A stretch of DNA of 64,000 nt from Bacteroidota bacterium (GCA_031385005.1 JANNBB010000026.1:35669-99668), one strand, 5' to 3'. Counted from the first letter of the stretch, positions 7,134-42,347 are shown. Numbers and translations are program-made. Notes: generated by a model not told the origin, from the letters alone.

Positions 7134-8603
7134 ATGCGAATTCTGATCATCGTTTTACTTTCCTATCTTCTTTTAAACTCCTGCAAGAAAGAAGAATTTG
7201 CTTCCGGTAATGTAGAACTTTCCTTTTCAGAAGATACCATAATTTTCGACACGGTATTTACCAGTGTTGGCAGCGCCACGCAGGTATTCACCGTTTACAA
7301 TCCCGATAAAAAAGATGTTAAAATATCATCCATACGCTTAGCCGGAGGAGATAATTCAAACTTCCGGCTCAATGTAAATGGTATTCCCGGTAAATCATTT
7401 ACGGATGTTGAAATTGGTGGCAAAGACAGTATTTTTATTTTCATCGAAGTAACCGTAGATCCTAATAATGGAACAACTCCACTCGTCATATCTGACTCCA
7501 TTTTATTCAGCACGAATGGATTTCTTCAGGACTTAGACCTCGTCGCCTGGGGACAAGATGCTTATTTTCACCGTCCGCCTGCTAACTCCGAAATCGCTCC
7601 TTTCTTCTTTCTCAATTGCAATGACACATGGAATAACGACAAACCTCACGTTGTTTATGGTTTTGCCATGGTCGATTCTTCCTGCACACTTACTGTGAAT
7701 GCCGGTACGAATGTGCACTTTCATCCCGGCTCCGGACTCATCATTTTGAATTCCGCTACATTCACCGTTAACGGAACCTTGCAGGATAAAGTCACTTTTC
7801 AGGGCGACCGCCTGGGAGAAGATTACAAAGACATTCCCGGACAATGGGACAGAATCTGGCTTTCCAATTTAAACTTACGAAGCAATGTCATCTCACCGGG
7901 AACTATTAACTCTTCGATAAAAAATGCCGTCATTAAAAATGGAACTATCGGACTTTTAGTAGATACTGTTTTCAATAACAATGCAAATACTTTTACACTC
8001 GAACTCGAAAACACCATCATCAAAAACATGTCATCCCATGCCATCGCACTTCGGGGCAGCAAGGTGAATGCATACAATTGTGTTTTCGCGAATTGCGGCG
8101 CTCAAAATGCCAATATCCTTTTCGGCGGAGTTTACAACTTCTACCATTGCACTTTTGCTAACTTCTGGAACAATTCTCAACGCGATCAACCCGCAGTTTC
8201 TCTGAACAACTACTTCGATCTAAATCTTCGCTCGTTAAATGCATATTTTGGGAATTGCATCATCTATGGCAACAACGACAACGAACTCGATCTTGATTCT
8301 TTTCCAATCGGCAATCTCTTTAACTTTAAGTTCGACCATTCTTTACTTAGAGTTGAAAGCGCTTTTCCTACTTCCGATCCGAATCGATATGCATCCATCT
8401 TAAAATCATTCAGCAGCTTCAACAATCCCCTCTTCAAAGACATCGACAACAACGATTACCAACTCGACTCGCTAAATAGTCCCGCAATTAATTCCGGCGA
8501 TATTACAATTACCAACCTCAGTCCAATCTTAAACAACGACATCTTAGGCAATTCCCGCCTCAATCCTCCTGCTCCTGACATGGGCGCTTATGAAAGGCGT
8601 TAA
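7134..8603 (+). CDS. Lipoprotein with predicted right-handed parallel beta-helix repeats (polysaccharide lyase/pectin-lyase-like fold)
   Basis: Lipobox LLNSC follows the signal peptide. The body is rich in Asn/Gly/Thr repeats (NAVIKNGTIGLL, NCVFANCGAQNANILFGG, NCIIYGNNDN) typical of beta-helix proteins. Confidence 0.55.
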   Translation: MRILIIVLLSYLLLNSCKKEEFASGNVELSFSEDTIIFDTVFTSVGSATQVFTVYNPDKKDVKISSIRLAGGDNSNFRLNVNGIPGKSFTDVEIGGKDSIFIFIEVTVDPNNGTTPLVISDSILFSTNGFLQDLDLVAWGQDAYFHRPPANSEIAPFFFLNCNDTWNNDKPHVVYGFAMVDSSCTLTVNAGTNVHFHPGSGLIILNSATFTVNGTLQDKVTFQGDRLGEDYKDIPGQWDRIWLSNLNLRSNVISPGTINSSIKNAVIKNGTIGLLVDTVFNNNANTFTLELENTIIKNMSSHAIALRGSKVNAYNCVFANCGAQNANILFGGVYNFYHCTFANFWNNSQRDQPAVSLNNYFDLNLRSLNAYFGNCIIYGNNDNELDLDSFPIGNLFNFKFDHSLLRVESAFPTSDPNRYASILKSFSSFNNPLFKDIDNNDYQLDSLNSPAINSGDITITNLSPILNNDILGNSRLNPPAPDMGAYERR

Positions 8604-15618: not shown

Positions 15619-17205
15619 TCAGCGACTGATAACCATGTTCCTTACCTGCTGTACGGAACCATTTTGCAACCGTGCATAATAGACTCCGGAGCTATAATTC
15701 TCATTTTCGAACCACAACTTATATGTCCCTGCAGCATACTCTCCATCTGCCAGCGTCTTAATTAAATGACCTTCATTGTCGAATATCTGAACAAGTGTAT
15801 GGCCTCCTGCTGTAGTAAAAGAAATATAAGTGCTTGATGTAAATGGATTCGGATAGTTCGAGATGAGGTTTATTCCTGCTGACTGGTTCAAATCATGAAT
15901 ACCTACGTTAGCACATGCTGTACTTTGAATAATCGGAAGTGTCTGGAAATTCTGCAATAAAATGCTGTTTAAATCCGTCGATGGAACACAGAACCAATCC
16001 TGTAAAACAGATGCATAAACAGAACGGAAATCGTATTGCATTGGCAGATTGTCGTTTGTTGATACGACAGGATCGATTACCGGATTGCTTCCTAAAATTC
16101 CGCTTTGAACATCTTTTCCAAATACAAACATCGGTGCTGCAGCGCCATGGTCCGTGCCCAAACTTGAATTGGAAACGATTCTTCTGCCAAATTCGGAAAA
16201 TGTCATTCCAAGTACACGATCTTCAATATTTAAAAATATCGTATCGTCCATGAATGCTGTAATGGCTTCAGAAAGTTTGGAAAGTAAATCGGCATGTTCA
16301 CCCGTAGTAGTTGTTGTATCGACCTGTGCAGAATGCGTATCGAAACCACCGAGGTTGACCATATAAATTTTTGTTTTCAATCCACCGGCAATCAGTCGAG
16401 CTACAATCTTAAGCTGATCTGCCAGAGAATTCGTTCCTGCTGTCGGATACATGGAAGATTGCTGAGTAATGTTATTGGCAGCAGCCATAATTACTGTCGA
16501 ATAAAGCGATGACTGTTGCGCAACCTGACGAATATAAGTGAGTTCCTTTCCCGCATTCGTATTGGGTGCCGGGTCTTGAACACCATTGATTAAATTATAA
16601 AAACTGGTAGGATCTGAAATAGCCATTCCCATGCTCGAAGCCGGACCTTGCAAAGCCATTGAAACCGTAGAACCGATTTGTATAGCCAGTGGATCCGGCA
16701 TGGTTGCATTCGGATATCCGGTTGGAAAATTCGGATATTCGTAATTAAGGTATCTACCACCCCATCCTGTAGCCAACACCTGATTTGCATCAGAACCGGT
16801 GAGCCAGATATCTGTTGCTCTGAAATGTGAAAAATTAGGAGAAGGATATCCTACTCCTTGTATAACATTCAATTTTCCGTCATTAAAAAGTTGTTGCATC
16901 CCCGACATCGAAGGATGAAAACCTGTTGCCGTATAACCATTCAATGCAAGAACCTGGGTATCCGGAATTAAAATGTTCGATCTCGCTTGCGATAAGTTCG
17001 TGTATTGATCGAGAGGAATTACTGTATTCAATCCGTCATTTCCTCCATTCAATTGAATCAGAATAAGCACGTGGTCATTCAGCGTAGCAGAATTTAACGC
17101 TTGCATCAACGGCGATCCTGCAAAAGCACGTACAGAAAATCCGCCTAATATGGATGGCAGTAAAGTGGCCGGCACCGTAGTGCGTAAAAAGTCTCTTCTT
17201 TTCAT
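15619..17205 (-). CDS. DUF1501 domain-containing protein with a twin-arginine signal peptide and a T9SS C-terminal sorting domain
   Basis: The N-terminus MKRRDFLRTT...AFAG is a Tat signal. The core is DUF1501 (sulfatase-like). The last ~80 aa (NYPNPFTSST...GVYYARLQNGSVQQVRNMVISR) is a T9SS type A CTD. Confidence 0.8.
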   Translation of the reverse strand: MKRRDFLRTTVPATLLPSILGGFSVRAFAGSPLMQALNSATLNDHVLILIQLNGGNDGLNTVIPLDQYTNLSQARSNILIPDTQVLALNGYTATGFHPSMSGMQQLFNDGKLNVIQGVGYPSPNFSHFRATDIWLTGSDANQVLATGWGGRYLNYEYPNFPTGYPNATMPDPLAIQIGSTVSMALQGPASSMGMAISDPTSFYNLINGVQDPAPNTNAGKELTYIRQVAQQSSLYSTVIMAAANNITQQSSMYPTAGTNSLADQLKIVARLIAGGLKTKIYMVNLGGFDTHSAQVDTTTTTGEHADLLSKLSEAITAFMDDTIFLNIEDRVLGMTFSEFGRRIVSNSSLGTDHGAAAPMFVFGKDVQSGILGSNPVIDPVVSTNDNLPMQYDFRSVYASVLQDWFCVPSTDLNSILLQNFQTLPIIQSTACANVGIHDLNQSAGINLISNYPNPFTSSTYISFTTAGGHTLVQIFDNEGHLIKTLADGEYAAGTYKLWFENENYSSGVYYARLQNGSVQQVRNMVISR

Positions 17206-17213
17206 GGTAAAGG

Positions 17214-18911
17214 TTATGAAAGTTGATATTCGGATAAATCCATTATGTACCTATAAAAACTCTGAAGACGCGACTTCACAATATTGTAATATGTTGTATT
17301 CGTCGGATCTCCAATATAATCATCCCAGGCATTCGTCCAATAATAATTACTGGTTTGGCCGGAAAGTAAAATTGACAACAAATACGCTTCCAACAATGGA
17401 GTTCCATCCAAGGCATAATGATAGGAAAGTACTTCGTCAATTAAAGCAATGGGATCGGAAGGATTGGTTAGTGTTTCCGTATAACCAACTACATCAATTA
17501 ATATGGTTTGCCCGTAGTTCGTATAACCATTTGCTGACATCCTATCAGTAAACTGATTTCTTTTGGGAAGTGTATCGGAGTTGATCCACAATTCGTGATA
17601 AGATGGTTCCTGATAATAGGCCTGAAAGCCTGCTACATTGGGAGGGTCGCCGATGTTTAATTGAAAATTAGAAGATTGAGATCTTAATTTATCCCAACTT
17701 GCGTATTGAGCAATAACATCTGTATTATCCGGAAAACCAACTTCAAATTCACGGGATAAACCAACAGTAAAATCAACAGGAGGTTTTATCAGACAAGCCC
17801 TGTTTAACACATCATAAAAGTGTTCGCTTTTAAATAATGCAGAAAGAACAGGTGCTATTTCATAATTATTTGTTCTAAAGATATTCGCAAGGGGCTGGAT
17901 GACATTTGTCTCAGTCGCTGAGTCAATTTCATAGTAAACAAACCATCGGTAAAATTTTCGGCAAACAAATTCTGCCACTTCATTGCGTGCAAATATCATA
18001 TTCATTAAATCATCAATTTCATTAGCCCCTGCAGTGCCGGATTGACCGGTTATTACTGCATTCCCATAAAAAGAAGAAAATTGCTTATTGCCTGCATCAT
18101 GTTTTGTCGGCATGAAATAAGAATTGTACCCATTTGCAGAACCTCCATTAGTAAGATCGAGTCGCCATCCTGTCAATACCCGTGCAGCTTCGCGTACATC
18201 ATCTTCCGTGTAATATGGATTCCCCATAGAATCCTTCCCAATAGTAAATAGCTCTTGTAACTCACGTGCATAGTTTTCATTGGGAGCAGCGGCTGTGTTT
18301 TTATCACCATTGAGGTATTTCAACATCGCACAATTTAGAGTAATCTGTTTGGTAAATTCTTTAAAATTACCAAGTGCATATTCTCTTAGCAAAGAATTGT
18401 ATTTGTAGATATAGGTTGATGAATCTATGATATCGAATTCTACAACAAAATGATTACTCCAGAAAAGAACCATTTTCTCCCTTAAACTTCTTGATTGATT
18501 CAGCATTTGTGAAATCCACCAGGATTTTAAACTTTTCATCCTGTAGAAATAGGTATAAATGGTAACGTTATTGGTATCCGGAGTAAAAGGCCAAGGCAAT
18601 CCGGCCGCACACTGAGGATCTGTCAACAGATTGTCGTAATTATTAACCGGATCAGGTGGTGGCGTATAAACGGGATGATTAATAAGCTCAATAAGCGTGT
18701 CAACTGAATCACTCATTCCAAGAGTTAAAAAAGTGTTGATATCTGCTTTAGTCGAACCAAACATCGTTCTTTTTAAAAGGTGCTTTGCTTCAGCAATAGT
18801 CCAAGACCCCGTATAGGGTGCTAGTCCTGTCATTGTCCGTGCAACGGAATCAAAACGCTGTCTCTGAGGTTTTGTTTGTGGTGTTTCTGATAGTAATTCA
18901 CGTCTTTCCAT
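17214..18911 (-). CDS. DUF1800 family protein
   Basis: 565 aa. Its position immediately upstream of and co-directional with the DUF1501 gene (8 bp gap) fits the conserved DUF1800-DUF1501 pair. Confidence 0.7.
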   Translation of the reverse strand: MERRELLSETPQTKPQRQRFDSVARTMTGLAPYTGSWTIAEAKHLLKRTMFGSTKADINTFLTLGMSDSVDTLIELINHPVYTPPPDPVNNYDNLLTDPQCAAGLPWPFTPDTNNVTIYTYFYRMKSLKSWWISQMLNQSRSLREKMVLFWSNHFVVEFDIIDSSTYIYKYNSLLREYALGNFKEFTKQITLNCAMLKYLNGDKNTAAAPNENYARELQELFTIGKDSMGNPYYTEDDVREAARVLTGWRLDLTNGGSANGYNSYFMPTKHDAGNKQFSSFYGNAVITGQSGTAGANEIDDLMNMIFARNEVAEFVCRKFYRWFVYYEIDSATETNVIQPLANIFRTNNYEIAPVLSALFKSEHFYDVLNRACLIKPPVDFTVGLSREFEVGFPDNTDVIAQYASWDKLRSQSSNFQLNIGDPPNVAGFQAYYQEPSYHELWINSDTLPKRNQFTDRMSANGYTNYGQTILIDVVGYTETLTNPSDPIALIDEVLSYHYALDGTPLLEAYLLSILLSGQTSNYYWTNAWDDYIGDPTNTTYYNIVKSRLQSFYRYIMDLSEYQLS

Positions 18912-19058
18912 GGGCGGGTAATTATCACTTCAAGACCAATAATTGAGTCGGAAGTTTAATGATGTTAATAATTTTCAAGAACAATATAGAAAAAATAAAA
19001 TACTTGACTATAGCAAATCCGGAAAATTATTGCAAAATATCAACAAATCAGTTTTAAT

Positions 19059-19097
19059 AAAAATCAAAAAGGCCAACCGTAAAAACACGGTTGGCCT
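19059..19097 (-). terminator. Rho-independent terminator downstream of apaG (minus strand)
   Basis: 9-bp GC-rich stem GGCCAACCG / CGGTTGGCC with an 8-nt loop. The transcript carries a U-run after the hairpin (complement of the plus-strand A-run 19059-19070). Confidence 0.6.
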
Positions 19098-19118: not shown

Positions 19119-19505
19119 TTAATTTAACTTATAAGGTACGATCATTTGAAATTCGGGGATTCGTACATAGAAATTCTTTTTGTCAATTAAACGCTCCATT
19201 AAATAAGTCCCATACATTTTACCAATTTCAGAATCCAGATTGCAGCCGGAAATGTATTGAAAAGTTTCACCCGTTCCGATTATCGGCTGTTCTCCAATTA
19301 CACCTTCTCCTTCTACTTCGCTATTCGTACCATTGGAATCAACAATGAACCAATGTCTGCGAGTTAAACGAATCGAGTAATCACTATTGTTGGTTATCGA
19401 AATGCGATAAGCAAAAATATGTTGATTGAGGTGTGAATTACTCTGGTCGGGTCTGTAAAAAACCTCAACACTTACCTTAATACCGGATGTAACTTGTGTA
19501 ATCAT
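19119..19505 (-). CDS. apaG: ApaG (DUF525) domain protein
   Basis: The protein begins MITQVTSGIKVSVEVFYRPDQS and contains RHWFIVDSNG, which is the canonical ApaG fold. The internal Met start is preferred. Confidence 0.8.
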   Translation of the reverse strand: MITQVTSGIKVSVEVFYRPDQSNSHLNQHIFAYRISITNNSDYSIRLTRRHWFIVDSNGTNSEVEGEGVIGEQPIIGTGETFQYISGCNLDSEIGKMYGTYLMERLIDKKNFYVRIPEFQMIVPYKLN

Positions 19506-19713
19506 AAATTCTGGAAACAAAGAACCAATGTACGAAAGCAATTAGAACAGGTGGTAATAAATTTGACCAATGGGCTGATTTATTTGGTGAAAGAATGCAG
19601 TTCTTACGTATTTTAATCGTACAGAAAATATGACTATAAAATGACGATCAAAAAAAGCAATGAATTCGACTTTTAGGTAACTTTGCAAACTTTAAAATTT
19701 TCTTCTTTCAAAA

Positions 19714-25156: not shown

Positions 25157-26482
25157 ATGAAAAAAATCATTACACTTATTTCATTATTAATAATTCTTGT
25201 AACTTTAGACCTCCGGGCACAAACATGGTTAGATATGGCAACAGGCCTTGGTGTATCAACTGAATCGGTAAAAGCAATTGCAGTTGCTCCCAATGGGACT
25301 ATTTATGCTGGCGGAACTTTTACAAATGCTACAAATTCTGCATTAAGTTATCTGGCTAAATGGAGTGGCACGGCTTGGGAAGCTGTTGGAACAGGAGTAA
25401 ACGGACCCGTGTATTCAATTGGAATTAAAACATCTTCTGAGGTATTTGTTGGCGGTGCTTTCACTTCTGCAGGAGGAGTTGCAGTAAACAACGTTGCAAA
25501 ATGGTCAGGATCCACCTGGTCAGACCTTGGCGGAGGTTTTAACGATCAGGTAAGCTGTATTTATGTGAGTTCAGTAACCGGCTCTGTATATGCAGGAGGG
25601 AAATTTTCTCTCTCAGGAACTACGGCTATGAACCACATTTCTAAATTGAATGGCACTACCTGGACTGCACTTGGCTCTGGAATTAGTTCCAGCGTTAATG
25701 CAATCATGGAAAATAATAGTATTCTTTATGCAGGAACTGAAGCATTATCTGCTCCCGTAAAAAAATTCGACGGATCTACATGGAGCGATGTTGCCGGTTT
25801 ATCGAGCGGAAAAGTATATGCTCTCGCATCTTTCAATAGCCAATTGTATGCCGGTGGAGATTTCTCTTCCCCTACTTTTGCAGCAGCACGTTACGATGGC
25901 ACCAATTGGAATACAATTGTTACTACGTTTGCTTCCGGTGATAAAGTATATGCCATGTTATCACGTTTTGGAATATTATACATCGGTGGTAAATTTTCAA
26001 ACCTCGGCATACCGGGATCACAATCGTCTAATGCTGCAAGAAAAATGTCTGCCAACAACCCTATTCAATCGATTACAGCTACTTCAAGTACTATCAATGA
26101 CGAAGTTTATGCAATCGGAAATCAGTCCGGCAAAGTAATTGTTGGCGGAAAATTCACCAACTTCAACCACATTGCCATTACTTCAACGACCATTGGAGTT
26201 GAAGAAATCAGCAGCCTTGTTTCAGGGTATAATTTTTATCCGAATCCGGTTAGTTCAAAAGCAAACCTGACTGTTCAAACAACTGAGAATCTTAAAAATC
26301 CTGCATTAAAAATCTTTGATTTACAATCCAGAATCATTGATAATCTGAACATCGATAGCTCAACCAATGGAAATGAAATTAATTTTTCTATTGATTGCAG
26401 CAGTTTACCAAAAGGAACCTACTATTATCTGCTTACTGATGAAGGCAACAATGTTCTTTCCCGTCAGTTTATCGTAGAATAA
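25157..26482 (+). CDS. Secreted repeat (delta-60/SBBP-like beta-propeller) protein with a T9SS C-terminal sorting domain
   Basis: Signal peptide. About 8 tandem ~50-aa repeats centred on the motif YAGG(T/K/D)F...W. A C-terminal T9SS CTD (YPNPVSSKANLTVQ...KGTYYYLLTDEGNNVLSRQFIVE). Confidence 0.75.
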   Translation: MKKIITLISLLIILVTLDLRAQTWLDMATGLGVSTESVKAIAVAPNGTIYAGGTFTNATNSALSYLAKWSGTAWEAVGTGVNGPVYSIGIKTSSEVFVGGAFTSAGGVAVNNVAKWSGSTWSDLGGGFNDQVSCIYVSSVTGSVYAGGKFSLSGTTAMNHISKLNGTTWTALGSGISSSVNAIMENNSILYAGTEALSAPVKKFDGSTWSDVAGLSSGKVYALASFNSQLYAGGDFSSPTFAAARYDGTNWNTIVTTFASGDKVYAMLSRFGILYIGGKFSNLGIPGSQSSNAARKMSANNPIQSITATSSTINDEVYAIGNQSGKVIVGGKFTNFNHIAITSTTIGVEEISSLVSGYNFYPNPVSSKANLTVQTTENLKNPALKIFDLQSRIIDNLNIDSSTNGNEINFSIDCSSLPKGTYYYLLTDEGNNVLSRQFIVE

Positions 26483-26610: not shown

Positions 26611-27987
26611 ATGAAGTATGCAATTATTGATATAGAAACTACCGGCAGTAATGCAGGTACCGGTCGCATTACCGAAATCGCCATCTATATACATGACGGT
26701 AAATCTATTGTCGATGAGTTTTGTAGTCTGATTAATCCGGAATGTGAAATTCCTCCATTTATTTCAAAGCTAACCGGAATTACCAATGAAATGGTTGAAA
26801 ATGCGCCAAAATTTTATGAGATAGCCAAACAAATCGTCGACATTACTGAAGACACCATTTTTGTAGCTCACAACGCTACTTTCGATTATAATTTTATCAG
26901 GCAAGAATATAAGTCACTCGGTTATAAATACGATAAAAGTTATTTATGCACCCTTCAGATGAGCAGGCAACTTATTCCCGGACACCCCTCCTACAGTCTT
27001 GGAAAGTTGTGTAGAAATTTGAATATTGAAATCGAAAATCGCCACCGTGCGCATGGCGATGCATTGGCTACGTCCAAACTTTTTGAATTGATTTTAAAAA
27101 GCAGCAATTCCGAAAATTTTCCCGAAGAGTTTATTCGGAACGATTATATGAATCTTCGCTTTCCTCCGGGATTTAACAGAAAAATTATTGAACAACTTCC
27201 TGAAAATTCCGGTGTCTATTATTTCCACGACTCCGCCGGAATTGTACTTTATATTGGGAAAAGCAAAAACATCAAAAAAAGAGTTTTAACTCATTTTAGT
27301 AATAAACAAACCCGTAGAGCAATTGAATTGCGAAATTCAATTTGCGACATAACATTCGAAGAAACAGGAAATGAATTAATCGCCCTCTTACTCGAATCTC
27401 AAGAAATCAAAAATCAAAAACCTTTTTATAACCGTAAACAAAAAGGCTCCTATCAAAATTATCACCTTATCTATTTTTACGATGAGCAGAGATATTTAAA
27501 TCTTGCCATCTCAAAAAAAATAGATGGTGCTGAATTACTTTGCACGTTAAATTCAAACGAAGAAGCTGAGGCGATACTGGAAAAACTCGTTTTGAAATTC
27601 GATCTTTGCAAAAAACATTGCGGAGCGCATGACATTTCACATTCTTGTTTTAGCTATTCCGTAAAACAATGTAAAGGCGCTTGCATCGGAAAAGAATCGC
27701 CTGAAAGCTACAATGAAAGAGTAAAAAAGGCCATTGAGACACAGAAATTCGAAAATCAAAATTTCATGATCATCGGAACAGGTCGAATCGAAAAAGAAAA
27801 ATCAATTGTCCATGTTGAAAAAGGCAAATACATGGGATTCGGTTATTTTGAACCGGAACTCTCCGGCGAAAATCCTGAAATTCTGAAATCTTTTATCAAA
27901 CCCGCAAACGATAACCGCGATGTCCGTCAGATAATCCGTTCATACATAAAAAAACCGGGTACCCAAGCACAGATCATTCATCATTAA
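26611..27987 (+). CDS. DnaQ-like 3'-5' exonuclease domain fused to a GIY-YIG nuclease domain
   Basis: Exo I motif IIDIETTG, Exo II FVAHNATFDYNF and Exo III HRAHGDALAT, then a GIY-YIG motif (GVYYFHDSAGIVLYIGKSKNIKKRVLTHF). Confidence 0.8.
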   Translation: MKYAIIDIETTGSNAGTGRITEIAIYIHDGKSIVDEFCSLINPECEIPPFISKLTGITNEMVENAPKFYEIAKQIVDITEDTIFVAHNATFDYNFIRQEYKSLGYKYDKSYLCTLQMSRQLIPGHPSYSLGKLCRNLNIEIENRHRAHGDALATSKLFELILKSSNSENFPEEFIRNDYMNLRFPPGFNRKIIEQLPENSGVYYFHDSAGIVLYIGKSKNIKKRVLTHFSNKQTRRAIELRNSICDITFEETGNELIALLLESQEIKNQKPFYNRKQKGSYQNYHLIYFYDEQRYLNLAISKKIDGAELLCTLNSNEEAEAILEKLVLKFDLCKKHCGAHDISHSCFSYSVKQCKGACIGKESPESYNERVKKAIETQKFENQNFMIIGTGRIEKEKSIVHVEKGKYMGFGYFEPELSGENPEILKSFIKPANDNRDVRQIIRSYIKKPGTQAQIIHH

Positions 27988-28008: not shown

Positions 28009-28581
28009 TTGAAAATCTATTTTATCCAATTTATACTTCTGCTTTCTTATTCCGGTTCAATTGCCCAAAGTTCTATTTTTCAAAACAGTTTACCGGATAT
28101 TGAAAATAAATCATTTTCTTTTTCCACGCTGCAACACAAAAAAGGAACAGTTATTGTTTTTCTATTGAGTGATTGCCCGGCCACTCAGGATTATACACGT
28201 TCGTTAAATATTCTTTCTAAAACCTATCTCTCCAATAACATTTCATTTGTCGGAATATTTCCGGGGAAATTCTCTTCAGACAGCGAACTGCTTGCCTTTC
28301 AGAAAATTTATAAATTAAATTTTCCATTATTAAAAGACAGCGAAATGACTCTGGCCAAATTCTTACAGGCGAAAACAGTACCCTCCTGCTATCTTTTAAA
28401 TGATACAGGCGAGATTGTCTATCAAGGAAGAATTGATGACTGGCTTTTTGCCCTCGGACGTAAAAAGAAAAGCGCTACTCAAAAAGATTTAGAAAATGCA
28501 ATTATCAGTTTAATAAAAAATCAACCCATAAAAATACCGGTAACACAGCCCATTGGATGTATTCTTGAATATGAAGATTAA
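28009..28581 (+). CDS. Thioredoxin-fold (redoxin/TlpA-like) protein with an atypical monothiol Cys-Pro-Ala-Thr motif, secreted
   Basis: Signal peptide. VIVFLLSDCPATQ sits where the WCxxC motif normally lies. Thioredoxin-like topology. The 3' end overlaps the next gene by about 29 bp. Confidence 0.6.
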   Translation: MKIYFIQFILLLSYSGSIAQSSIFQNSLPDIENKSFSFSTLQHKKGTVIVFLLSDCPATQDYTRSLNILSKTYLSNNISFVGIFPGKFSSDSELLAFQKIYKLNFPLLKDSEMTLAKFLQAKTVPSCYLLNDTGEIVYQGRIDDWLFALGRKKKSATQKDLENAIISLIKNQPIKIPVTQPIGCILEYED

Positions 28582-29965
28582 CAGAATTTTCACTTTTCCC
28601 GCTTTTACTATTTTTATTGTCATGAGCATTTTGTTTAGCTCTTGCATAAGAGAAAAGAATTCCAATCCTACTCCTGTTTTCTCCAAAGAAATTGCACCCA
28701 TCTTTTATGAAAATTGCTCTTCCTGTCATCGTCCGGGCTCCGGAGCCCCTTTTAATCTGATCACGTACGAAGACATTGTTAAGAAGATTCATACGGTTCA
28801 ACTTTCCATTAATGAAAGACTGATGCCTCCCTGGCCGGCTGATACTTCTTACTCTCATTTTGTCGGGGAAAAGGTTTTAAGTGAAAATGAAATACATCTT
28901 ATCAATCGCTGGATTGAAGCCGGATTTCCTATCGGAGATACCAATCAAATACCACAGCCTCCGGACTTTGGATTGAATACGGAAAAGAAAAAACCGGATT
29001 TTATTATACGCATGCGTCAACCATTTCTAATCAAAGGTGATAACACAGATAATTTTATCATGCTGAAGATTCCCTATGAATTTCCATCTGATACTTTTAT
29101 ACGGACAATCGAAATTGTTCCGGGAAATAAAAAGCTCGTTCATCATATCAATGCACATCTAATTCAATATTTCGCGGGAGCCAAAAAAGACAACCAAAAA
29201 GGAGTTGCCTATGTAAATACGGAGTTGCATGATAAAATTAGTGCATATCAATTACTTTCGTTACCCAACGACGACGGCTCCTATCCATTGCTCACCCCTT
29301 CGGTCTCCAATTATCTACCGGGTGTTGAAGCGGTATTTTATCCGCCCGGAATCGGCGGACTAAAAGTAAAGAAACAAGGAGCTATCTTGCTCGATAACAT
29401 TCATTATGGGCCGAGTCCTATCGATACATCCGATCAAACAACTTTTAATTTTTATTTCAGTCCGACAGCACCCGAGAGACCACTAAGGGAATTTATTATT
29501 GGAACCAGCGGTGTTTCTCCGATTATTCCGCCCCTTGTGATACCTCCGCATACGGTTAAGAAATTTATTTCGTCGTATCGGGTACCGGAAGACATTTCTC
29601 TTTTAACCATCAATCCACATATGCATTTGCTTGGTATTTTTTTCCAGGCCTATGTTCTCCTGCCAGATGGTGATACTCTCCCATTAATCCGCATTAAAAA
29701 ATGGGATTTTCGATGGCAATATTTTTACACATTTCCGAAAATTTTAAAAATCCCTGCGGGTTCTCTTATTCAAATGGAAGGTCTTTTTGATAACACAGAG
29801 AATAATCCTTTGGTTCCCTTTCATCCACCACGTACCATTTCGGAAAGAGCAGGAAGCATGCGCACAACCGATGAAATGTTTCAATTGATATGCACATACT
29901 TGCCATATAAACCGGGCGATGAAAATATTCGATTAGAAAACAAACAAACAGAAAAAGACGACTAA
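28553..29965 (+). CDS. Lipoprotein with an N-terminal c-type heme-binding motif (CxxCH) fused to a copper type II monooxygenase-like (PHM/DBH-like) domain
   Basis: Lipobox FSSC. A heme-c motif NCSSCHRPG is followed by ...LMPPWPAD, a Planctomycete-type cytochrome c-like layout. Candidate Cu-ligand motifs are LVHHINAH (HH), NPHMHLLG (HxH) and a downstream Met (LIQMEGL). Confidence 0.5.
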   Translation: MDVFLNMKINRIFTFPAFTIFIVMSILFSSCIREKNSNPTPVFSKEIAPIFYENCSSCHRPGSGAPFNLITYEDIVKKIHTVQLSINERLMPPWPADTSYSHFVGEKVLSENEIHLINRWIEAGFPIGDTNQIPQPPDFGLNTEKKKPDFIIRMRQPFLIKGDNTDNFIMLKIPYEFPSDTFIRTIEIVPGNKKLVHHINAHLIQYFAGAKKDNQKGVAYVNTELHDKISAYQLLSLPNDDGSYPLLTPSVSNYLPGVEAVFYPPGIGGLKVKKQGAILLDNIHYGPSPIDTSDQTTFNFYFSPTAPERPLREFIIGTSGVSPIIPPLVIPPHTVKKFISSYRVPEDISLLTINPHMHLLGIFFQAYVLLPDGDTLPLIRIKKWDFRWQYFYTFPKILKIPAGSLIQMEGLFDNTENNPLVPFHPPRTISERAGSMRTTDEMFQLICTYLPYKPGDENIRLENKQTEKDD

Positions 29966-32349: not shown

Positions 32350-34392
32350 TTATGAAAGTTGAGAAAGTATCCTTTTAGCTTGTTCATTACTCTTATCTCT
32401 TTTCAAGACTTCCTTCAGATACATTTTAGCATCTTTCTCTCTGCCCAGAAAAAGCATTGCACCTGCTTTGTTTAAAAATGCCTGTACATTATCCGGATCC
32501 AGAGATAATGCTTTATCATACATTTTAAGTGCCGACTGAACATTCTTTTCGGCAGATAAAAGCAAAAATCCCAGACTTACATATGCGCTGCTGTATTTGG
32601 GATTTTCACGGAGAATAAACTCATAATTTCTTTTTGCTTCAGCTATCATTCCCGCATCAAATTGAGCACCGGCCAACTTATTTCTAAAATCGGTAACAAA
32701 TGGTGCAAGCTCTGTTGAATTTTCAAAATAGGAAACTGCTTTGGAATTATTACCGAGGGCTGCATAGGATTCACCGATTCGGTAAGAAGTCCAGGCATGC
32801 TCATTCATCAGGGATTTCTTGTCCAGATTTTCTAAATTGTGATTTTTACTTTCCGCATAGCTCACAACTTTTTTGTAATCATTTTTTAAAAATGCCCAAT
32901 GCACAAGCGAATGAAAATTGCGAAGAATACTGTCAACATTATTATCGACAAAATATTTCTTTGCAGAATCCAGAAATGAAGGATTATCAGAAAATTTTTC
33001 GAAATAGGAAAGAAATGCTTCTCCCTTTGAACGGTTATCAGGAGTTGAATTATTAATACAAATCAATCCGGCAAAATCTTTTATCCGTTTGACTTCCGCT
33101 TGAGTTTTAGGAATGCGAATATAATGATCGCTGGTGATAACATGTGGGATATCAGTTGCACCGCCTTTGGGCATATGACAGCTTATACAATTATCATTTG
33201 AAAGGGCTCTGACTTCCATGGATTCCTTGCAGGGAAGCTGATGAATTTTTGACTTACCGGATTGAGCATTTGCCGGCTGATGACATGAAATACATTTGGA
33301 ATTAAAATAAGAACTACGTGTAACAGTAACACTAACATGTGGATCGTGGCAGGTTATGCAAGTCAATGCATTTTGATAAGGCCGAAGAGATGATTGCTTG
33401 GCATTAATCTCCTCTGCCTTTCTTAGACTCTCTTGGAAACATTTACTCATCTTCAGTCTTTCCGCATGCGAAGCCATAATATGACTATCGTCATCGCCTT
33501 TATAGAGTGGCATGTAAACATCCATCACTTCTTTCAAATGCATGCCGGGCTTAAAGTCAAGAAACGATTTGCCCTCTTTTAAAATGGCATTACCTTGTAT
33601 ATGACACCGCTGACAAACATCCAGTTGTAAGTCGATCGGTAGTTTTGCAGGGTTGACAATCGAATAATCGATTTCCTCCTTAACATCGATTATCTTTCCC
33701 TCCTTTTTTTCGCGAATGTGCAAACTTCCCGGACCGTGACAACGTTCACAATCAATTCCATTAGCCACAAAAGAATATTTATTCTCTGACCCTTGGACCA
33801 TTTTCGGATAGGCATTGTGACAGGTCATGCATTCTAACCCTATTTTTCTTGAGAAACGACTATTATAACCGCCTTCAAATCCCGGAGGTAAATCCCACTT
33901 TTTTTTCTGAGTATAAAACGTTGCCGGCACTTGAAAAACATATCCGTTGACATTCATAAGATGCGAATTAGTATGCTGGCCGGAACCTACTATCCAATCT
34001 ACGTGCTCGGCACGTTTGAATAAAGTATCTCTACCTGAAAGACGGAACTCTAAAACAACTAAAGAATCATTTTTCCAAAAGGGATGATATTGCAGGTTTT
34101 TAAAAGTATCTGAAATAATTGCAATATCAGAAAACTTAGCAGACGACTTACTTTTCGTTGCACGGTCAAACGAAAGTCCCATTCCCGTATGAAGAAATGT
34201 TTCATATTTATCGGAATGACATTCTTTACAGGATAGAATTCCCGCATATTGAACGGTATCATTTAAGGAAGAATATTGCTTTTTGTCATCGGAATCTTCA
34301 TTATGAGAATTGCATGACATCAAATAAACAAGAAAAAAAATAAAACAGGAGCAAAACAAATTTCTTAATTGGCTCCTGTATTTAAATATCAT
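32350..34392 (-). CDS. Multiheme (7 CxxCH) c-type cytochrome lipoprotein with a C-terminal TPR repeat domain
   Basis: Lipobox LMSC. Seven heme-binding motifs: CKECH, CMTCH, CERCH, CQRCH, CITCH, CISCH and CISCH. The C-terminal ~200 aa are TPR-like (YAALGNNSKAVSYF..., AYVSLGFLLL..., AFLNKAGAMLFLG...). Confidence 0.8.
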   Translation of the reverse strand: MIFKYRSQLRNLFCSCFIFFLVYLMSCNSHNEDSDDKKQYSSLNDTVQYAGILSCKECHSDKYETFLHTGMGLSFDRATKSKSSAKFSDIAIISDTFKNLQYHPFWKNDSLVVLEFRLSGRDTLFKRAEHVDWIVGSGQHTNSHLMNVNGYVFQVPATFYTQKKKWDLPPGFEGGYNSRFSRKIGLECMTCHNAYPKMVQGSENKYSFVANGIDCERCHGPGSLHIREKKEGKIIDVKEEIDYSIVNPAKLPIDLQLDVCQRCHIQGNAILKEGKSFLDFKPGMHLKEVMDVYMPLYKGDDDSHIMASHAERLKMSKCFQESLRKAEEINAKQSSLRPYQNALTCITCHDPHVSVTVTRSSYFNSKCISCHQPANAQSGKSKIHQLPCKESMEVRALSNDNCISCHMPKGGATDIPHVITSDHYIRIPKTQAEVKRIKDFAGLICINNSTPDNRSKGEAFLSYFEKFSDNPSFLDSAKKYFVDNNVDSILRNFHSLVHWAFLKNDYKKVVSYAESKNHNLENLDKKSLMNEHAWTSYRIGESYAALGNNSKAVSYFENSTELAPFVTDFRNKLAGAQFDAGMIAEAKRNYEFILRENPKYSSAYVSLGFLLLSAEKNVQSALKMYDKALSLDPDNVQAFLNKAGAMLFLGREKDAKMYLKEVLKRDKSNEQAKRILSQLS

Positions 34393-35078: not shown

Positions 35079-35852
35079 TTAAATAATCCCTTCAAAAACC
35101 ATTTGTGCCGGCCCTTCCAGCCAAACGTCTTCAAACCCGTCCTGCCGTCTCTTGTAATATACCCTTAAACGCCCTCCGGGAGTTTCCAAATCGCTCTCAT
35201 TGCCCAATTGGTAGCCTAAGAATGAAGCCGATAATGCAGCTGCAGTAACACCTGTGCCACAGGAAAGTGTCTCATCTTCAACTCCTCTTTCATATGTCCG
35301 AACGAATAGGTCGTTTTCTCTTTTTTCAACAAAATTGATATTTGTTCCAACGTCTTTAAATCGCTCATTGTATCGAACCTCTCGTCCTTTAGCAACAACG
35401 TCAATGTTTTTAACATCGTTAACAAATACCGTATAGTGAGGGGAACCGGTATTCATAAAAATAAAATCTTTTCCTGTCTCAACATTAAATACATCGCTCA
35501 TCTGCAAACGAATCAGATATGGGTTTTGGGAAATCACTAATGCCTTATGTGGGCCGTCAAAAGCATAAAACCCTTTATATGTTTGGGCGATACCGATTGT
35601 GTTTGCAAATGCTACTGCACATCGGCCGCCATTTCCGCACATAGAACCAATGTTTCCGTCGGAGTTGTAGTAAAGCATTTCGAAATCGTATCCACCTTTC
35701 TCTCTAATGAGGATAAGTCCATCCGCTCCTATACCAAAATGACGGTCGCAAAGTTCCTTCACCTGATTAACGCTCCACTGCATCTGACTTTTTCTTTCAT
35801 CGATTAAAATGAAATCGTTTCCTGTGCCATGATATTTTTTAAAAGGAATCAT
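35079..35852 (-). CDS. dapF: Diaminopimelate epimerase
   Basis: GNDF at the N-terminus, plus the two catalytic Cys motifs SMCGNGGRC and LSCGTGVTAAAL. Confidence 0.9.
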   Translation of the reverse strand: MIPFKKYHGTGNDFILIDERKSQMQWSVNQVKELCDRHFGIGADGLILIREKGGYDFEMLYYNSDGNIGSMCGNGGRCAVAFANTIGIAQTYKGFYAFDGPHKALVISQNPYLIRLQMSDVFNVETGKDFIFMNTGSPHYTVFVNDVKNIDVVAKGREVRYNERFKDVGTNINFVEKRENDLFVRTYERGVEDETLSCGTGVTAAALSASFLGYQLGNESDLETPGGRLRVYYKRRQDGFEDVWLEGPAQMVFEGII

Positions 35853-36751
35853 TTGGAGATTGAAGGTTTTTCGGTTTCAGGTATAAAGGGAGAAAAATTT
35901 TCAGATCGTTCGAGAGAAAACAATTCCTTACCGTATTTGAATAATAATTTATCGTTTCGCTTTATCAACTGAACAGCATCGGGTTCCTCGATTCCAAAAA
36001 GCACAATTCTATCATTGTAAAATTTGTAGCCTTTATAATTCACGGGAGAAACCCAAAATTCAATAATGTAATTGTCGTTCTCAATACTTTCATTGCCGGG
36101 TAAATCTGCCAGAGGGTTTAATGCTTCCGTAGTATTTTGAGCAATAGTATTATCTGAATTAATCGGTTTCTGTATTTCGTCACCTTCAACCTTAGCTTTT
36201 GTTACGATGCTTATTAGTAACTGATCTTTTTTGAAGACAATGTCCGGATTCTCTGAATTGATTGATGCGGTGTCGATGCCTACTGATTCTTTAATTGATT
36301 CAGGTGAAGGCGAAACAATATTCGATTTTGAGTTTTTTGAAACAGGAACTTTAATTTCTTTTTCATTTTCAGAGCCGGTATTTAAGTTAACAATTTCCGG
36401 TTTCTTCTGGCGAAAAATATCAAACAATAAATACCTCCTTTTATTTTCTGTTGATTCCTTACCTGAAAAATTCCAAATCGTAATTCCTGCGCCGGCCACA
36501 ACGAAAAAGAAAATAATCAATTTAAGCGCAGATGGAATTAGCGGCTTTTTGTAATCGATGTGCTTTTCGATTAGTTCGCGCAGCCGTGAATCTTCCGCTT
36601 TACGAATTCCATCAATTAAATTATTTTGAAAGGAGACCTGACTTTTAAATTCCTGATCTTCTTCCATCCTATCCATGAAATTTTTTAATTCCAAACCCGA
36701 CAATGAGTTTTGTAAATAACGATCAATCAACTTTCTGTTTTCAGATTTCAT
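35849..36751 (-). CDS. Putative anti-sigma factor (single-pass membrane protein)
   Basis: A cytoplasmic N-terminal ~70 aa, one TM helix (ALKLIIFFFVVAGAGITIW), then a periplasmic domain. The ATG overlaps the stop codon of the upstream sigma factor gene (ATGA). Confidence 0.5.
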   Translation of the reverse strand: MKSENRKLIDRYLQNSLSGLELKNFMDRMEEDQEFKSQVSFQNNLIDGIRKAEDSRLRELIEKHIDYKKPLIPSALKLIIFFFVVAGAGITIWNFSGKESTENKRRYLLFDIFRQKKPEIVNLNTGSENEKEIKVPVSKNSKSNIVSPSPESIKESVGIDTASINSENPDIVFKKDQLLISIVTKAKVEGDEIQKPINSDNTIAQNTTEALNPLADLPGNESIENDNYIIEFWVSPVNYKGYKFYNDRIVLFGIEEPDAVQLIKRNDKLLFKYGKELFSLERSENFSPFIPETEKPSISK

Positions 36752-40109: not shown

Positions 40110-41597
40110 ATGGCCTTTGATGCACTCAAACAAAATGATCAGGTAGATTTTAAAGATAAATACGAGAGTGAACTCGCTGAATGGATTGAACAGGAAAAAG
40201 CTGCGATAGCACTCATTCATACAACCGGCTCTCTGTGGTTTGATAAATCAGTTGAATTGGTATTGTTCAGAAATCAGCTTGTAGATAGAAGCGCTAGTGA
40301 AATTCTCAATTTGCACCAGTATGCAAAGCAATTCGTAAAAAAGCCAATCAATGTAATCGATACATTAATGCTGGCAAAGGAACTAAGCAAACTTGACCTT
40401 GCTCCTTCCCGCATTGACATCGGTCGGTTAGGCTCGGAGTGGATACTTGAAAGAAGTAATTACAAAAATGTATTGGAATTTCTTTCCGGCAAACTCAATA
40501 ATTTTATTGGAAAAGAAAAACGAGTAATCGTTCCTAAGGACGTTGTACTTTATGGTTTTGGAAGAATTGGTCGTTTAGTCATGCGCGAACTGATAGCGCA
40601 AGCAGGAAAAGGCGAGCAATTGCGTTTACGTGCAATCGTAACCCGTAGCGACAGCGATGAGGATATTATTAAAAGAGCCGATTTATTACGTAACGACTCC
40701 GTTCATGGAGCATTTCCCGGAACTGTCATCGAAGATTTTAAAAACAAAGCATTGGTAGTGAACGGTCACTCTGTGCACATGATTGCCGCAAATGACCCTG
40801 CAACTATCGATTATACAAAATACGGTATTAACAATGCACTTATCATCGACAATACCGGAATCGTCAGGGATCGCGAAGGGTTAAGCAAACACCTTCAGTC
40901 AAAAGGAGTCAGTAAGGTATTACTTACCGCTCCCGGGAAAGGCGATGTTCCCAATGTTGTTTATGGTGTTAATGAGGAATCGTTCGACCAAACAAAAGAA
41001 CAAATATTTTCTGCCGCTTCATGCACGACCAATGCAATTGTTCCCGTGTTGGCTGTAATTGAAAAGGCTTTTAGCATTGAACGAGGTCATATTGAGACTA
41101 TACACTCCTATACAAACGATCAAAACCTGCTCGATAATTACCACAAAAAATACAGAAGAGGACGTTCTGCTCCTTTGAATATGGTGATCACAGAAACAGG
41201 AGCGGATAAAGCTGTAGCTAAAGTTTTACCACAATTAGCAGGTAAGTTAACAGGTAATGCCGTTCGAGTTCCAACGCCCGATGTTTCACTTGCAATCCTT
41301 AATCTGACTGTTAAAAAAGAAACCAGCAAAGAAGGAGTCAATGAGGTTTTACGGGAAGCTGCACTTCAAGGAGACCTGGTTGAACAAATCCAATATTCCG
41401 TATCGAATGAACTAGTCTCTTCAGATTTAGTAGGAAACTCCTGCGCTTCTATTGTGGATAGTCCGGCCACTATTGTCTCGAAAGATAATAAGAGCATGGT
41501 ACTCTATATTTGGTACGATAACGAATATGGTTACAGCCGACAAGTAATTCGCTATGCGAAATTTCTTGCTGAAGTAATCAGACTCAGATACTACTAA
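40110..41597 (+). CDS. Glyceraldehyde-3-phosphate dehydrogenase family protein with an ~140-aa N-terminal extension
   Basis: NAD-binding motif LYGFGRIGR, catalytic SCTTN, and the GAPDH C-terminal domain (SAPLNMVITETGADKAV). The preceding ~140 aa have no counterpart in canonical ~335-aa GapA. Confidence 0.75.
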   Translation: MAFDALKQNDQVDFKDKYESELAEWIEQEKAAIALIHTTGSLWFDKSVELVLFRNQLVDRSASEILNLHQYAKQFVKKPINVIDTLMLAKELSKLDLAPSRIDIGRLGSEWILERSNYKNVLEFLSGKLNNFIGKEKRVIVPKDVVLYGFGRIGRLVMRELIAQAGKGEQLRLRAIVTRSDSDEDIIKRADLLRNDSVHGAFPGTVIEDFKNKALVVNGHSVHMIAANDPATIDYTKYGINNALIIDNTGIVRDREGLSKHLQSKGVSKVLLTAPGKGDVPNVVYGVNEESFDQTKEQIFSAASCTTNAIVPVLAVIEKAFSIERGHIETIHSYTNDQNLLDNYHKKYRRGRSAPLNMVITETGADKAVAKVLPQLAGKLTGNAVRVPTPDVSLAILNLTVKKETSKEGVNEVLREAALQGDLVEQIQYSVSNELVSSDLVGNSCASIVDSPATIVSKDNKSMVLYIWYDNEYGYSRQVIRYAKFLAEVIRLRYY

Positions 41598-41648: not shown

Positions 41649-42347
41649 TTAATAATCACGACCGAAATCAATAACCGTTGTTCGGATTTCAAAACCGTTT
41701 ACGATAATTCCGTTTATCTTACCTAGCACATCTTGTTGCTTATATACCAGACCAACACCGGTGGCATAAATTTCGTTTTTGTAAATTCGTTCAATGTAAT
41801 TGTCTTCATCCATCTGTATTACAGAAAGTGTAGAGTCAAAGGACATACCACCATATGAACCTTGCTCATGAAAGTATTCATAGCTGTAAATTTCTTCGTC
41901 CTCTGAATTTGCATCGTTTCCATTCCACGAGATATCTTCATTAATAGGAAAAGCCAGTTTATGAAGAGGAATATTATTTTCAATCCTGTAAGCCGCATAT
42001 GGAGTCAGGTATTGAGTCCAAACGTTTATGATACTCCAATCGTTTGATGAATCTTTTCTGTAATAGCGGTTCACCACCTGAACAGTTTTTCCGGAACCAT
42101 CAACAAATGACGAATCGATTTCTTCTTTGATTTCGCAATGGAAATAATAGACTGAGTCGTCGTTCAGGTTATCGTTTTCGGCGTGAAAAATTGAATCTAC
42201 ACTGTAAGAAACCCATGTTCCGGGTTCAGTCGGAAAATAATTTAACGAAACAGGAGGTACAATCAAAGTCTCTTTCTTGCAGCTTTGAAAAACAACAAGC
42301 AGCAAAAAGATAAATAAAAAAGAAACTGGTTTTTTAAACTTTTGCAT
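41649..42347 (-). CDS. Hypothetical lipoprotein
   Basis: Signal peptide with lipobox FQSC. No other recognisable motifs. The 5' end overlaps the mnmA stop by 14 bp. Confidence 0.5.
   Translation of the reverse strand: MQKFKKPVSFLFIFLLLVVFQSCKKETLIVPPVSLNYFPTEPGTWVSYSVDSIFHAENDNLNDDSVYYFHCEIKEEIDSSFVDGSGKTVQVVNRYYRKDSSNDWSIINVWTQYLTPYAAYRIENNIPLHKLAFPINEDISWNGNDANSEDEEIYSYEYFHEQGSYGGMSFDSTLSVIQMDEDNYIERIYKNEIYATGVGLVYKQQDVLGKINGIIVNGFEIRTTVIDFGRDY

Follow-up and report, generated by a model that had tools for sequence, protein, structure and literature searches.

The window analysed in this study is a stretch of 64,000 nucleotides (nt) from a Bacteroidota bacterium (GCA_031385005.1 JANNBB010000026.1:35669-99668), and it carries a DUF1800-DUF1501 gene pair at positions 15619-18911 (Table 1). 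A preliminary description of this DNA had reported the pair, and both open reading frames (ORFs) were found at exactly these coordinates on the minus strand, each matching the hidden Markov model (HMM) of its family above the cut-off. The DUF1501 protein combines an N-terminal signal of the twin-arginine translocation (Tat) type with a type IX secretion system (T9SS) C-terminal domain (CTD), and its DUF1800 partner lacks a signal peptide. The spacer of 8 nt between the two genes points to one transcription unit, and the pair is thus read as a two-gene operon in which translation is probably coupled. A strong terminator hairpin parts the apaG-like gene from this unit, and the pair is set among housekeeping genes, including those for an ABC-F ATPase, ApaG, MazG, a peroxiredoxin and a ZIP transporter. 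A locus with 87% identity was syntenic with the window, and at a locus with 70% identity the neighbours were all different. The pair is therefore kept while the flanking genes change, which indicates a self-contained two-gene unit. Furthermore, the same adjacency of DUF1800 and DUF1501 was found in about 80 species loci of the Bacteroidota clade of this pair and in other phyla.

The N-terminus of DUF1501 consists of an n-region (MKRRDFLR), an h-region (TTVPATLLPSILGGFSV) and a c-region (RAFA), with cleavage predicted before G31. The twin arginines occupy residues 3-4 and are followed by F at +2 and L at +3, so that residues 2-8 read K-R-R-D-F-L-R. The h-region has 17 uncharged residues, and its most hydrophobic stretch of 12 averages 1.52 on the Kyte-Doolittle scale, compared with 3.37 by the same measure for a Sec-type T9SS cargo of the window (25157), and the c-region contains a basic residue, R26, followed by an AxA-type site (AFA before G). 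These features were scored with a rule-based script of our own rather than a published predictor, and the same script gave 1.6-1.8 for the Escherichia coli CueO, SufI and TorA signals. Among the full-length DUF1501 cluster representatives (64-100% identity), the motif was RR in 102 of 116 and RK in the other 14; F at +2 was present in all 116, and +3 was L, I, F or V. The R-R/K pair and F at +2 were thus retained while the adjoining residues varied. Moreover, every complete DUF1501 N-terminus in the approximately 80 species loci carried the same Tat-type signal, and a twin-arginine signal was found in all 11 distant DUF1501 proteins examined, which came from Proteobacteria, Actinomycetota, Deinococcota, Acidobacteriota and one CTD-less member of the Bacteroidota. 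Prior investigations had also found DUF1501 to be PRED-TAT positive (PMC5122149) and to carry a twin-arginine signal (PMC3542564). Within the window, no N-terminus besides that of DUF1501 was Tat-like. The twin-arginine motif that the preliminary description had read at the start of the protein (KRRDFLRTT...AFAG) was therefore borne out, with all sequence features of a Tat signal present and the motif conserved, as RR or RK, in 116 of 116 relatives. Judged by these features, the N-terminus of DUF1501 is a Tat-type signal. In addition, a sub-clade with R-K (MKRKDF..., F at +2 kept; P0086, P0090, P0093-P0095 and others) would offer a natural test of how strict Tat is in the Bacteroidota.

At the other end of the protein, PF18962 (Por_Secre_tail) matched residues 451-526 of 528 with 30.7 bits (cut-off 27), and TIGR04183 matched residues 451-526 with 29.6 bits (cut-off 23). 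In the AlphaFold model, residues 448-526 form seven strands at a predicted local distance difference test (pLDDT) score of about 90, after a linker of low confidence. Foldseek searches of the PDB with this domain returned the CTD of Tannerella mirolase (8qb1), the CTD of the Flavobacterium johnsoniae NucA substrate in its translocon complex (8glk_D) and PorZ (5m11), and the motifs YPNPF and GxYY were kept across the relatives. The preliminary description had also assigned a T9SS CTD of about 80 residues to this end and had named matches to TIGR04183 and PF07394 as one way to check the protein; both models scored above their cut-offs, as did PF18962, and the fold and the match to solved CTDs agreed with the assignment. 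On the HMM matches and the predicted structure, the C-terminal domain of DUF1501 is a T9SS type A CTD. This domain was absent in all 11 of the DUF1501 proteins from outside the clade, a set that includes one Cytophagales plasmid (Bacteroidota), and those proteins end directly after the catalytic domain. It was present in all full-length matches among the at least 596 species genomes sampled. Being confined to a clade of a T9SS-bearing phylum, the CTD is therefore considered a clade-specific addition.

The combination of the two signals was not restricted to the window. The full-length members of the 120 closest DUF1501 clusters have 526-531 amino acids (aa) and the same architecture, and relatives were encoded in at least 596 genomes in a pattern scan with one genome per GTDB species. 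For the best 80 of these at least 596, the match extended over DUF1501 residues 1-528 with 56-77% identity. The carriers of the Tat and CTD architecture belong to the Chitinophagales, Sphingobacteriales and Cytophagales, and the cultured ones include Daejeonella, Pedobacter lithocola, Ferruginibacter yonginensis, Niastella populi, Longitalea luteola and Chitinophaga eiseniae. By sequence comparison, the DUF1501 protein with both signals is an old and conserved family and no one-off fusion. An exact look-up of the DUF1501 sequence of the window gave no record, and that of DUF1800 gave an identical protein on a 3-kb contig. In the window itself, two further proteins carry a T9SS type A CTD (25157-26482 and 50058-52046, both on the plus strand; PF18962 40.9 bits each), which suggests that this genome makes T9SS cargo. 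Both begin with a classical Sec signal, MKK plus a hydrophobic stretch; one is a Rax2/DUF5122 beta-propeller, and the other, of 662 aa, has no other Pfam domain. A small survey of 1.14 Mb (the window plus the loci) found eight other CTD proteins, which were Sec-type wherever the N-terminus was complete, a sample too small for a frequency. A generic CTD profile run against a set of 5.8 billion proteins returned only CTD fragments of 74-148 aa without N-termini, from which no frequency of the Tat and CTD combination was obtainable.

The region between the two signals placed DUF1501 among the enzymes of the alkaline phosphatase superfamily. PF07394 matched residues 47-375 with 56.2 bits (cut-off 27), and the predicted model of the core showed the alpha/beta fold of this superfamily. 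Comparison of the core with superfamily proteins gave values of 14.2 for Xanthomonas NPP, 14.1 for ENPP6, 13.5 for choline sulfatase, 12.9 for PafA, 12.3 for PhoK and 10.4 for PlcH. The residues D57 (in GGNDG), S126-H127, D289 and H291 (in FDTH), H304, and D352-H353 (in TDHG) were invariant in the relatives. Residues of this kind form the metal site and the nucleophile of the superfamily, and they lie in motifs typical of it. Residues 123-169 were modelled at pLDDT below 50. DUF1501 is thus probably a hydrolase or transferase that depends on a metal and acts on phospho- or sulfo-esters, a chemistry that we infer from motifs in a region that is in part poorly modelled. The motif of formylglycine sulfatases is C/S-x-P/A-x-R; the invariant FSHFR of DUF1501 does not fit it, and this identity was rejected. 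Sequence searches of the PDB with single sequences and profiles gave no match for DUF1501 or DUF1800, so that neither family has a solved structure there, and no function for the two families was found in the literature. On a Sphingomonas plasmid (L090), a DUF1800-DUF1501 pair adjoins a TonB-dependent receptor and a protein like the phosphatidylinositol-specific phospholipases C, and on a Chondrinema plasmid (L086) the pair adjoins a TonB-dependent receptor, a protein of the endonuclease/exonuclease/phosphatase family and a sugar porter. These neighbours give a weak hint of organophosphate scavenging.

The DUF1800 protein was modelled as an all-alpha structure with confidence (pLDDT 88) and had no structural relative in the PDB; its residues 1-16 fell below pLDDT 50. 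The preliminary description was correct in seeing no obvious signal peptide on this protein, and it had missed a conserved twin-arginine-like start, MERRELL, at the head of the N-terminal sequence MERRELLSETPQTKPQRQR. About 100 of the 116 full-length DUF1800 relatives (~86%) start with M-[DN]-R-R-[DE]-[FL]-[LF]-[TS], near the Tat consensus. The 18 residues that follow the motif were 26% charged and 24% hydrophobic in DUF1800, whereas they were 7% charged and 52% hydrophobic in DUF1501. The first uncharged run of at least 13 residues had a Kyte-Doolittle mean of 0.42 and is part of the conserved folded region. A search of the isolated DUF1800 N-terminus with the Tat HMMs of Pfam and NCBIfam (E up to 10) gave no match and was uninformative. 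Across about 76 DUF1800 loci of the clade, no hydrophobic signal was present, the exception being one doubtful upstream stretch in L049. The RRxFL motif also recurs farther out in the DUF1800 family, where a few representatives, for example P0245 and P0375, have a short true hydrophobic stretch after it. A conserved RRxFL without a hydrophobic region, on a DUF1800 protein without a signal, is new here.

In other phyla, DUF1800 had a signal of its own in 7 of 10 examples. A Sec signal peptide was found in Novosphingobium, Paraburkholderia, Sphingomonas and Acidisarcina and a lipoprotein signal in Vibrio, Cupriavidus and Agarilytica; the proteins of Azospirillum, Miltoncostaea and Chondrinema had none. 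An N-terminus with RR alone occurred in none of these 10 examples. The Sec and lipoprotein signals indicate that DUF1800 is an extracytoplasmic family, and wherever it lacked a signal the neighbouring DUF1501 had a Tat signal. Export as a hitchhiker is therefore the simplest reading, and DUF1800 is most likely carried by DUF1501 through Tat, judging from a passenger without a signal, an adjacent gene and an extracytoplasmic family. This mechanism is established for hydrogenases and formate dehydrogenases (PMC10924467), and it gives a concrete lead on the question, raised in the preliminary description, of how the two proteins work together. Speculatively, the RR motif of DUF1800 might be left over from a complete signal that was lost, or it might touch the multivalent TatBC receptor (PMC5102672) at a second point. 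Two plasmids carry unusual forms of the pair: on Thermus thermophilus plasmid 4 (L091, 1000-3005) an IS982 transposase splits DUF1800 and leaves DUF1501 and its Tat signal intact, and on an Acidisarcina polymorpha plasmid (L093, 1059-4826) DUF1800 has 1255 aa with long N-terminal immunoglobulin (Ig)-like repeats and is paired with a DUF1501 bearing a normal Tat signal.

According to reviews, it is Sec that brings the cargo of the T9SS into the periplasm (PMC9127263, PMC9251779). A published table lists 'Sec/Tat' for the type II secretion system (T2SS) and 'Sec' for the T9SS (PMC8047123), and the predictor T9GPred uses 'no Tat signal' as a criterion drawn from 102 experimentally shown cargos, so that the DUF1501 family described here would be rejected by it. 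No paper describing a Tat-dependent T9SS substrate was found in the literature searched. The preliminary description had held that T9SS cargo goes by Sec, with which the reviews and T9GPred agree, and that a handover from Tat to the T9SS would be mechanistically unusual, a view that is overstated because the T9SS carries folded cargo and Tat with the T2SS provides a precedent. Periplasmic proteins pass the SprA barrel of the T9SS translocon in the folded state, sfGFP-CTD being one example (PMC9127263, PMC9251779), and the route across the inner membrane should therefore not matter to it. Export by Tat and then by the T9SS would thus be undocumented rather than mechanistically odd; it would break the working rule of the field and not its mechanistic picture, and the finding is best regarded as a new combination of known parts.

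The following course of events is proposed. DUF1501 would be made with its Tat signal, which makes folding in the cytoplasm most likely, probably together with metal uptake, and the folded protein would be exported by TatAC and probably cut by signal peptidase I after AFA30. Having gained a type A CTD in this clade, the folded periplasmic protein would then be handed to the T9SS and be released or attached to the surface once the CTD is removed. DUF1800 would most likely bind DUF1501 in the cytoplasm and cross the inner membrane on the Tat signal of its partner, with its RRxFL perhaps touching the multivalent Tat receptor at a second point, and it would afterwards either stay in the periplasm or leave the cell with DUF1501. 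Taken as a whole, this chain, with Tat export of a folded DUF1501 of the alkaline phosphatase superfamily, T9SS secretion by means of the CTD and DUF1800 as a Tat hitchhiker, is given a slight preference. The Tat-then-T9SS route by itself is held with greater confidence than the whole chain, and the hitchhiking with less. A bolder version, in which DUF1800 and DUF1501 pass both membranes as a folded heterodimer by means of the DUF1501 signals (Tat, then CTD and T9SS) and the RRxFL of DUF1800 is a second docking element for the multivalent TatC receptor, one without an h-region, is unlikely.

Several observations weigh against the proposed chain, and the alternatives draw on them. For DUF1800, about one quarter of the clade species loci encode a protein without the N-terminal extension or the RR motif, which is therefore not essential, and the physical complex with DUF1501 is hypothetical. 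DUF1800 may accordingly stay inside the cell as a maturation factor or chaperone for DUF1501, in metal insertion or in proofreading before Tat export, with RRxFL as a remnant for partner binding; a vestigial twin-arginine motif is likewise retained in NarG, where it binds the chaperone NarJ. The missing hydrophobic region and cleavage site, the disordered N-terminus and the dispensability of RRxFL are consistent with this role, but in other phyla most members of the family bring a Sec or lipoprotein signal of their own, so that the family works outside the cytoplasm, and a protein of 565 aa with many invariant residues along its whole length resembles a functional subunit and not a small chaperone. 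A cytoplasmic DUF1800 is thus possible, if doubtful. That DUF1800 is exported by Tat in its own right, on an atypical signal with little beyond an RRxFL n-region, is highly improbable. RRxFL fits the Tat consensus very well, and the hydrophobic stretch after it in P0245 and P0375 suggests descent from a full Tat signal, but an h-region is needed for productive TatBC binding, and in the clade no uncharged hydrophobic stretch follows the motif, the first long uncharged run being the weakly hydrophobic one in the folded part.

Other adverse points concern the two signals of DUF1501. PF10518 and TIGR01409 (Pfam and NCBIfam, E up to 10) gave no match on its isolated 40-residue N-terminus, a result that is uninformative; short Tat HMMs are often removed by the filters of HMMER. 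Together with the RK of 14 of the 116 relatives, this would be compatible with a signal used by Sec, in which RR merely makes the n-region positive and DUF1501 is an ordinary Sec-then-T9SS cargo. Such a reading is nonetheless quite improbable, given the retention of R-R/K, of the invariant F at +2 and of L, I, F or V at +3 amid varying neighbours, an h-region far less hydrophobic than that of the Sec cargo in the window, a basic residue in the c-region, the same motif on DUF1501 from five phyla, and the positive PRED-TAT result for DUF1501 in PMC5122149. As for the CTD, its scores exceed the HMM cut-offs by 3-7 bits, a precomputed PF18962 match is lacking in about 15 of 120 DUF1501 relatives, faint in L001 and L002 and weak in L003 and L004, and the pLDDT of the whole DUF1501 model is a mediocre 71. 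Foldseek also matched generic folds of the Ig-like kind, among them alpha-2-macroglobulin domains. The C-terminal beta-sandwich could on these grounds be a structural or binding Ig-like domain of an enzyme that remains periplasmic as in other phyla, yet little probability is attached to this, since the domain lies at the extreme C-terminus, keeps YPNPF and GxYY, matches solved CTDs, among them that of a substrate in complex with the translocon, and is found only in a T9SS-bearing phylum while being absent in every homologue outside the clade. Moreover, no tat or T9SS machinery genes were found among the approximately 40 ORFs of the 64-kb window. The presence of both systems in this genome is assumed on the strength of the phylum and the other CTD cargos, and a wide occurrence of TatAC among Bacteroidetes and Sphingobacteria has been reported (PMC3827258). 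On balance, Tat export of DUF1501 followed by T9SS secretion is still preferred.

The closest parallel to this proposal is PlcH of Pseudomonas aeruginosa, which has a Tat signal and forms a folded heterodimer with PlcR2, an operon partner without a signal, to be exported by Tat and then by the Xcp T2SS (PMC3601568). PlcH is also a structural neighbour of the DUF1501 core. In PlcH-PlcR2, however, the outer membrane step is made by the T2SS with no linear sorting domain, whereas DUF1501 has a predicted T9SS CTD. PlcR2 is a chaperone of 17 kDa unrelated to the 62-kDa DUF1800, and the gene order is reversed. Like the gingipains, NucA and RemA of F. johnsoniae and other canonical type A cargo of the T9SS, DUF1501 ends in a beta-sandwich of about 80 residues preceded by a flexible linker, and its host is likewise a member of the Bacteroidota with other CTD cargo in the same genome. 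All 102 of the T9GPred cargos have a Sec signal and no Tat signal; DUF1501, by contrast, bears a signal of the Tat type, and its operon partner lacks any sorting signal. The pairs of other phyla comprise the same Pfam families in the same order with a twin-arginine DUF1501 and have no assigned function, and further related pairings, the PSCyt/PSD-DUF1501 ones, are those in Planctomycetes and Verrucomicrobia (PMC5122149, PMC3542564). Outside the clade, the DUF1501 of these pairs lacks the CTD and DUF1800 usually has its own signal. As in the Tat hitchhiker complexes NiFe hydrogenase, DmsAB and formate dehydrogenase, one subunit has a full Tat signal and the other, encoded next to it, has none (PMC10924467). 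These complexes are redox enzymes of the inner membrane or the periplasm, whereas DUF1501 also carries a signal for secretion across the outer membrane. Their passenger subunits are not known to carry a conserved RR motif. The Tat-dependent sortase substrates of Actinobacteria likewise combine an N-terminal Tat signal with a C-terminal sorting signal that is processed by a sortase-type enzyme (PMC10924467); they differ in the Gram-positive wall, in having LPXTG instead of a folded CTD and in the lack of an outer membrane translocon.

If the proposed route is correct, the T9SS would take Tat cargo as well as Sec cargo, like the T2SS, and cargo prediction by the rule of 'Sec signal, no Tat signal' would systematically overlook a family that hundreds of soil and freshwater Bacteroidota carry. 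For the question whether the SprA translocon can pass a protein that folded and received its metal in the cytoplasm, perhaps even a whole heterodimer, the family would also be a natural test case. It would furthermore provide a first handle on DUF1800 and DUF1501, in that DUF1501 would act extracytoplasmically and, for the members of this clade, on the cell surface or beyond it. An extracellular DUF1501 fits a role in the scavenging of phospho- or sulfo-esters. The RR motif of DUF1800 without an h-region poses a new question for Tat targeting, and a heterodimer that crossed both membranes would be the first T9SS cargo to travel piggyback and, as a Tat substrate with two motifs, would be of a new kind.

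Table 1. Coordinates of the DUF1800-DUF1501 pair, its predicted parts and the region upstream of it in the window
Feature	Position	Strand	Details
DUF1800 gene	17214..18911	-	565 aa; first gene of the pair; PF08811 306.6 bits
Twin-arginine-like motif ERRELL, DUF1800 codons 2-7	18891..18908	-	No hydrophobic region after it
Disordered N-terminal extension, DUF1800 aa 1-25	18837..18911	-	Carries the twin-arginine-like motif
Intergenic spacer, DUF1800 stop to DUF1501 start	17206..17213	-	8 nt; sequence read
DUF1501 gene	15619..17205	-	528 aa + stop; Tat-type signal, alkaline phosphatase superfamily domain, linker, T9SS type A CTD
Predicted Tat signal peptide, DUF1501 aa 1-30	17116..17205	-	Sequence, rule-based features, conservation
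Catalytic-type domain, DUF1501 aa ~44-430	15916..17076	-	Alkaline phosphatase superfamily fold
T9SS type A CTD, DUF1501 aa 448-528 (flexible linker aa 431-447 before it)	15622..15864	-	HMMs, predicted structure, Foldseek
Upstream non-coding region of the pair	18912..19097	-	apaG-like terminator hairpin, then ~160 nt AT-rich leader/promoter region
Terminator hairpin after the apaG-like gene	19070..19097	-	Perfect 12-bp GC-rich stem, then T run
apaG-like gene, upstream of the pair	19119-19541		ApaG domain in ORF

Several other genes of the window have features of their own. In a protein of 680 aa (32350-34392, minus strand), multihaem cytochrome c motifs (MtrC/MtrF-like, cytochrome c7/c3) occur together with C-terminal tetratricopeptide repeats, and a cytochrome c maturation protein of the CcmF type is encoded at 55106-57541 (plus strand). 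A 495-aa protein like glyceraldehyde-3-phosphate dehydrogenase (40110-41597, plus strand) has its NAD-binding domain from residue 144 onwards and an N-terminal extension of about 140 residues without a Pfam match; the extension could stem from a wrongly called start, since each ORF was listed from its first start codon. Four ORFs of 232-489 aa had no Pfam match at E <= 0.001 (7134-8603 and 28553-29965 on the plus strand; 35849-36751 and 41649-42347 on the minus strand). In addition, a 458-aa fusion of an RNase T/DnaQ-like exonuclease with a GIY-YIG nuclease is encoded at 26611-27987 (plus strand) and is conserved at its place in L003, a syntenic locus.

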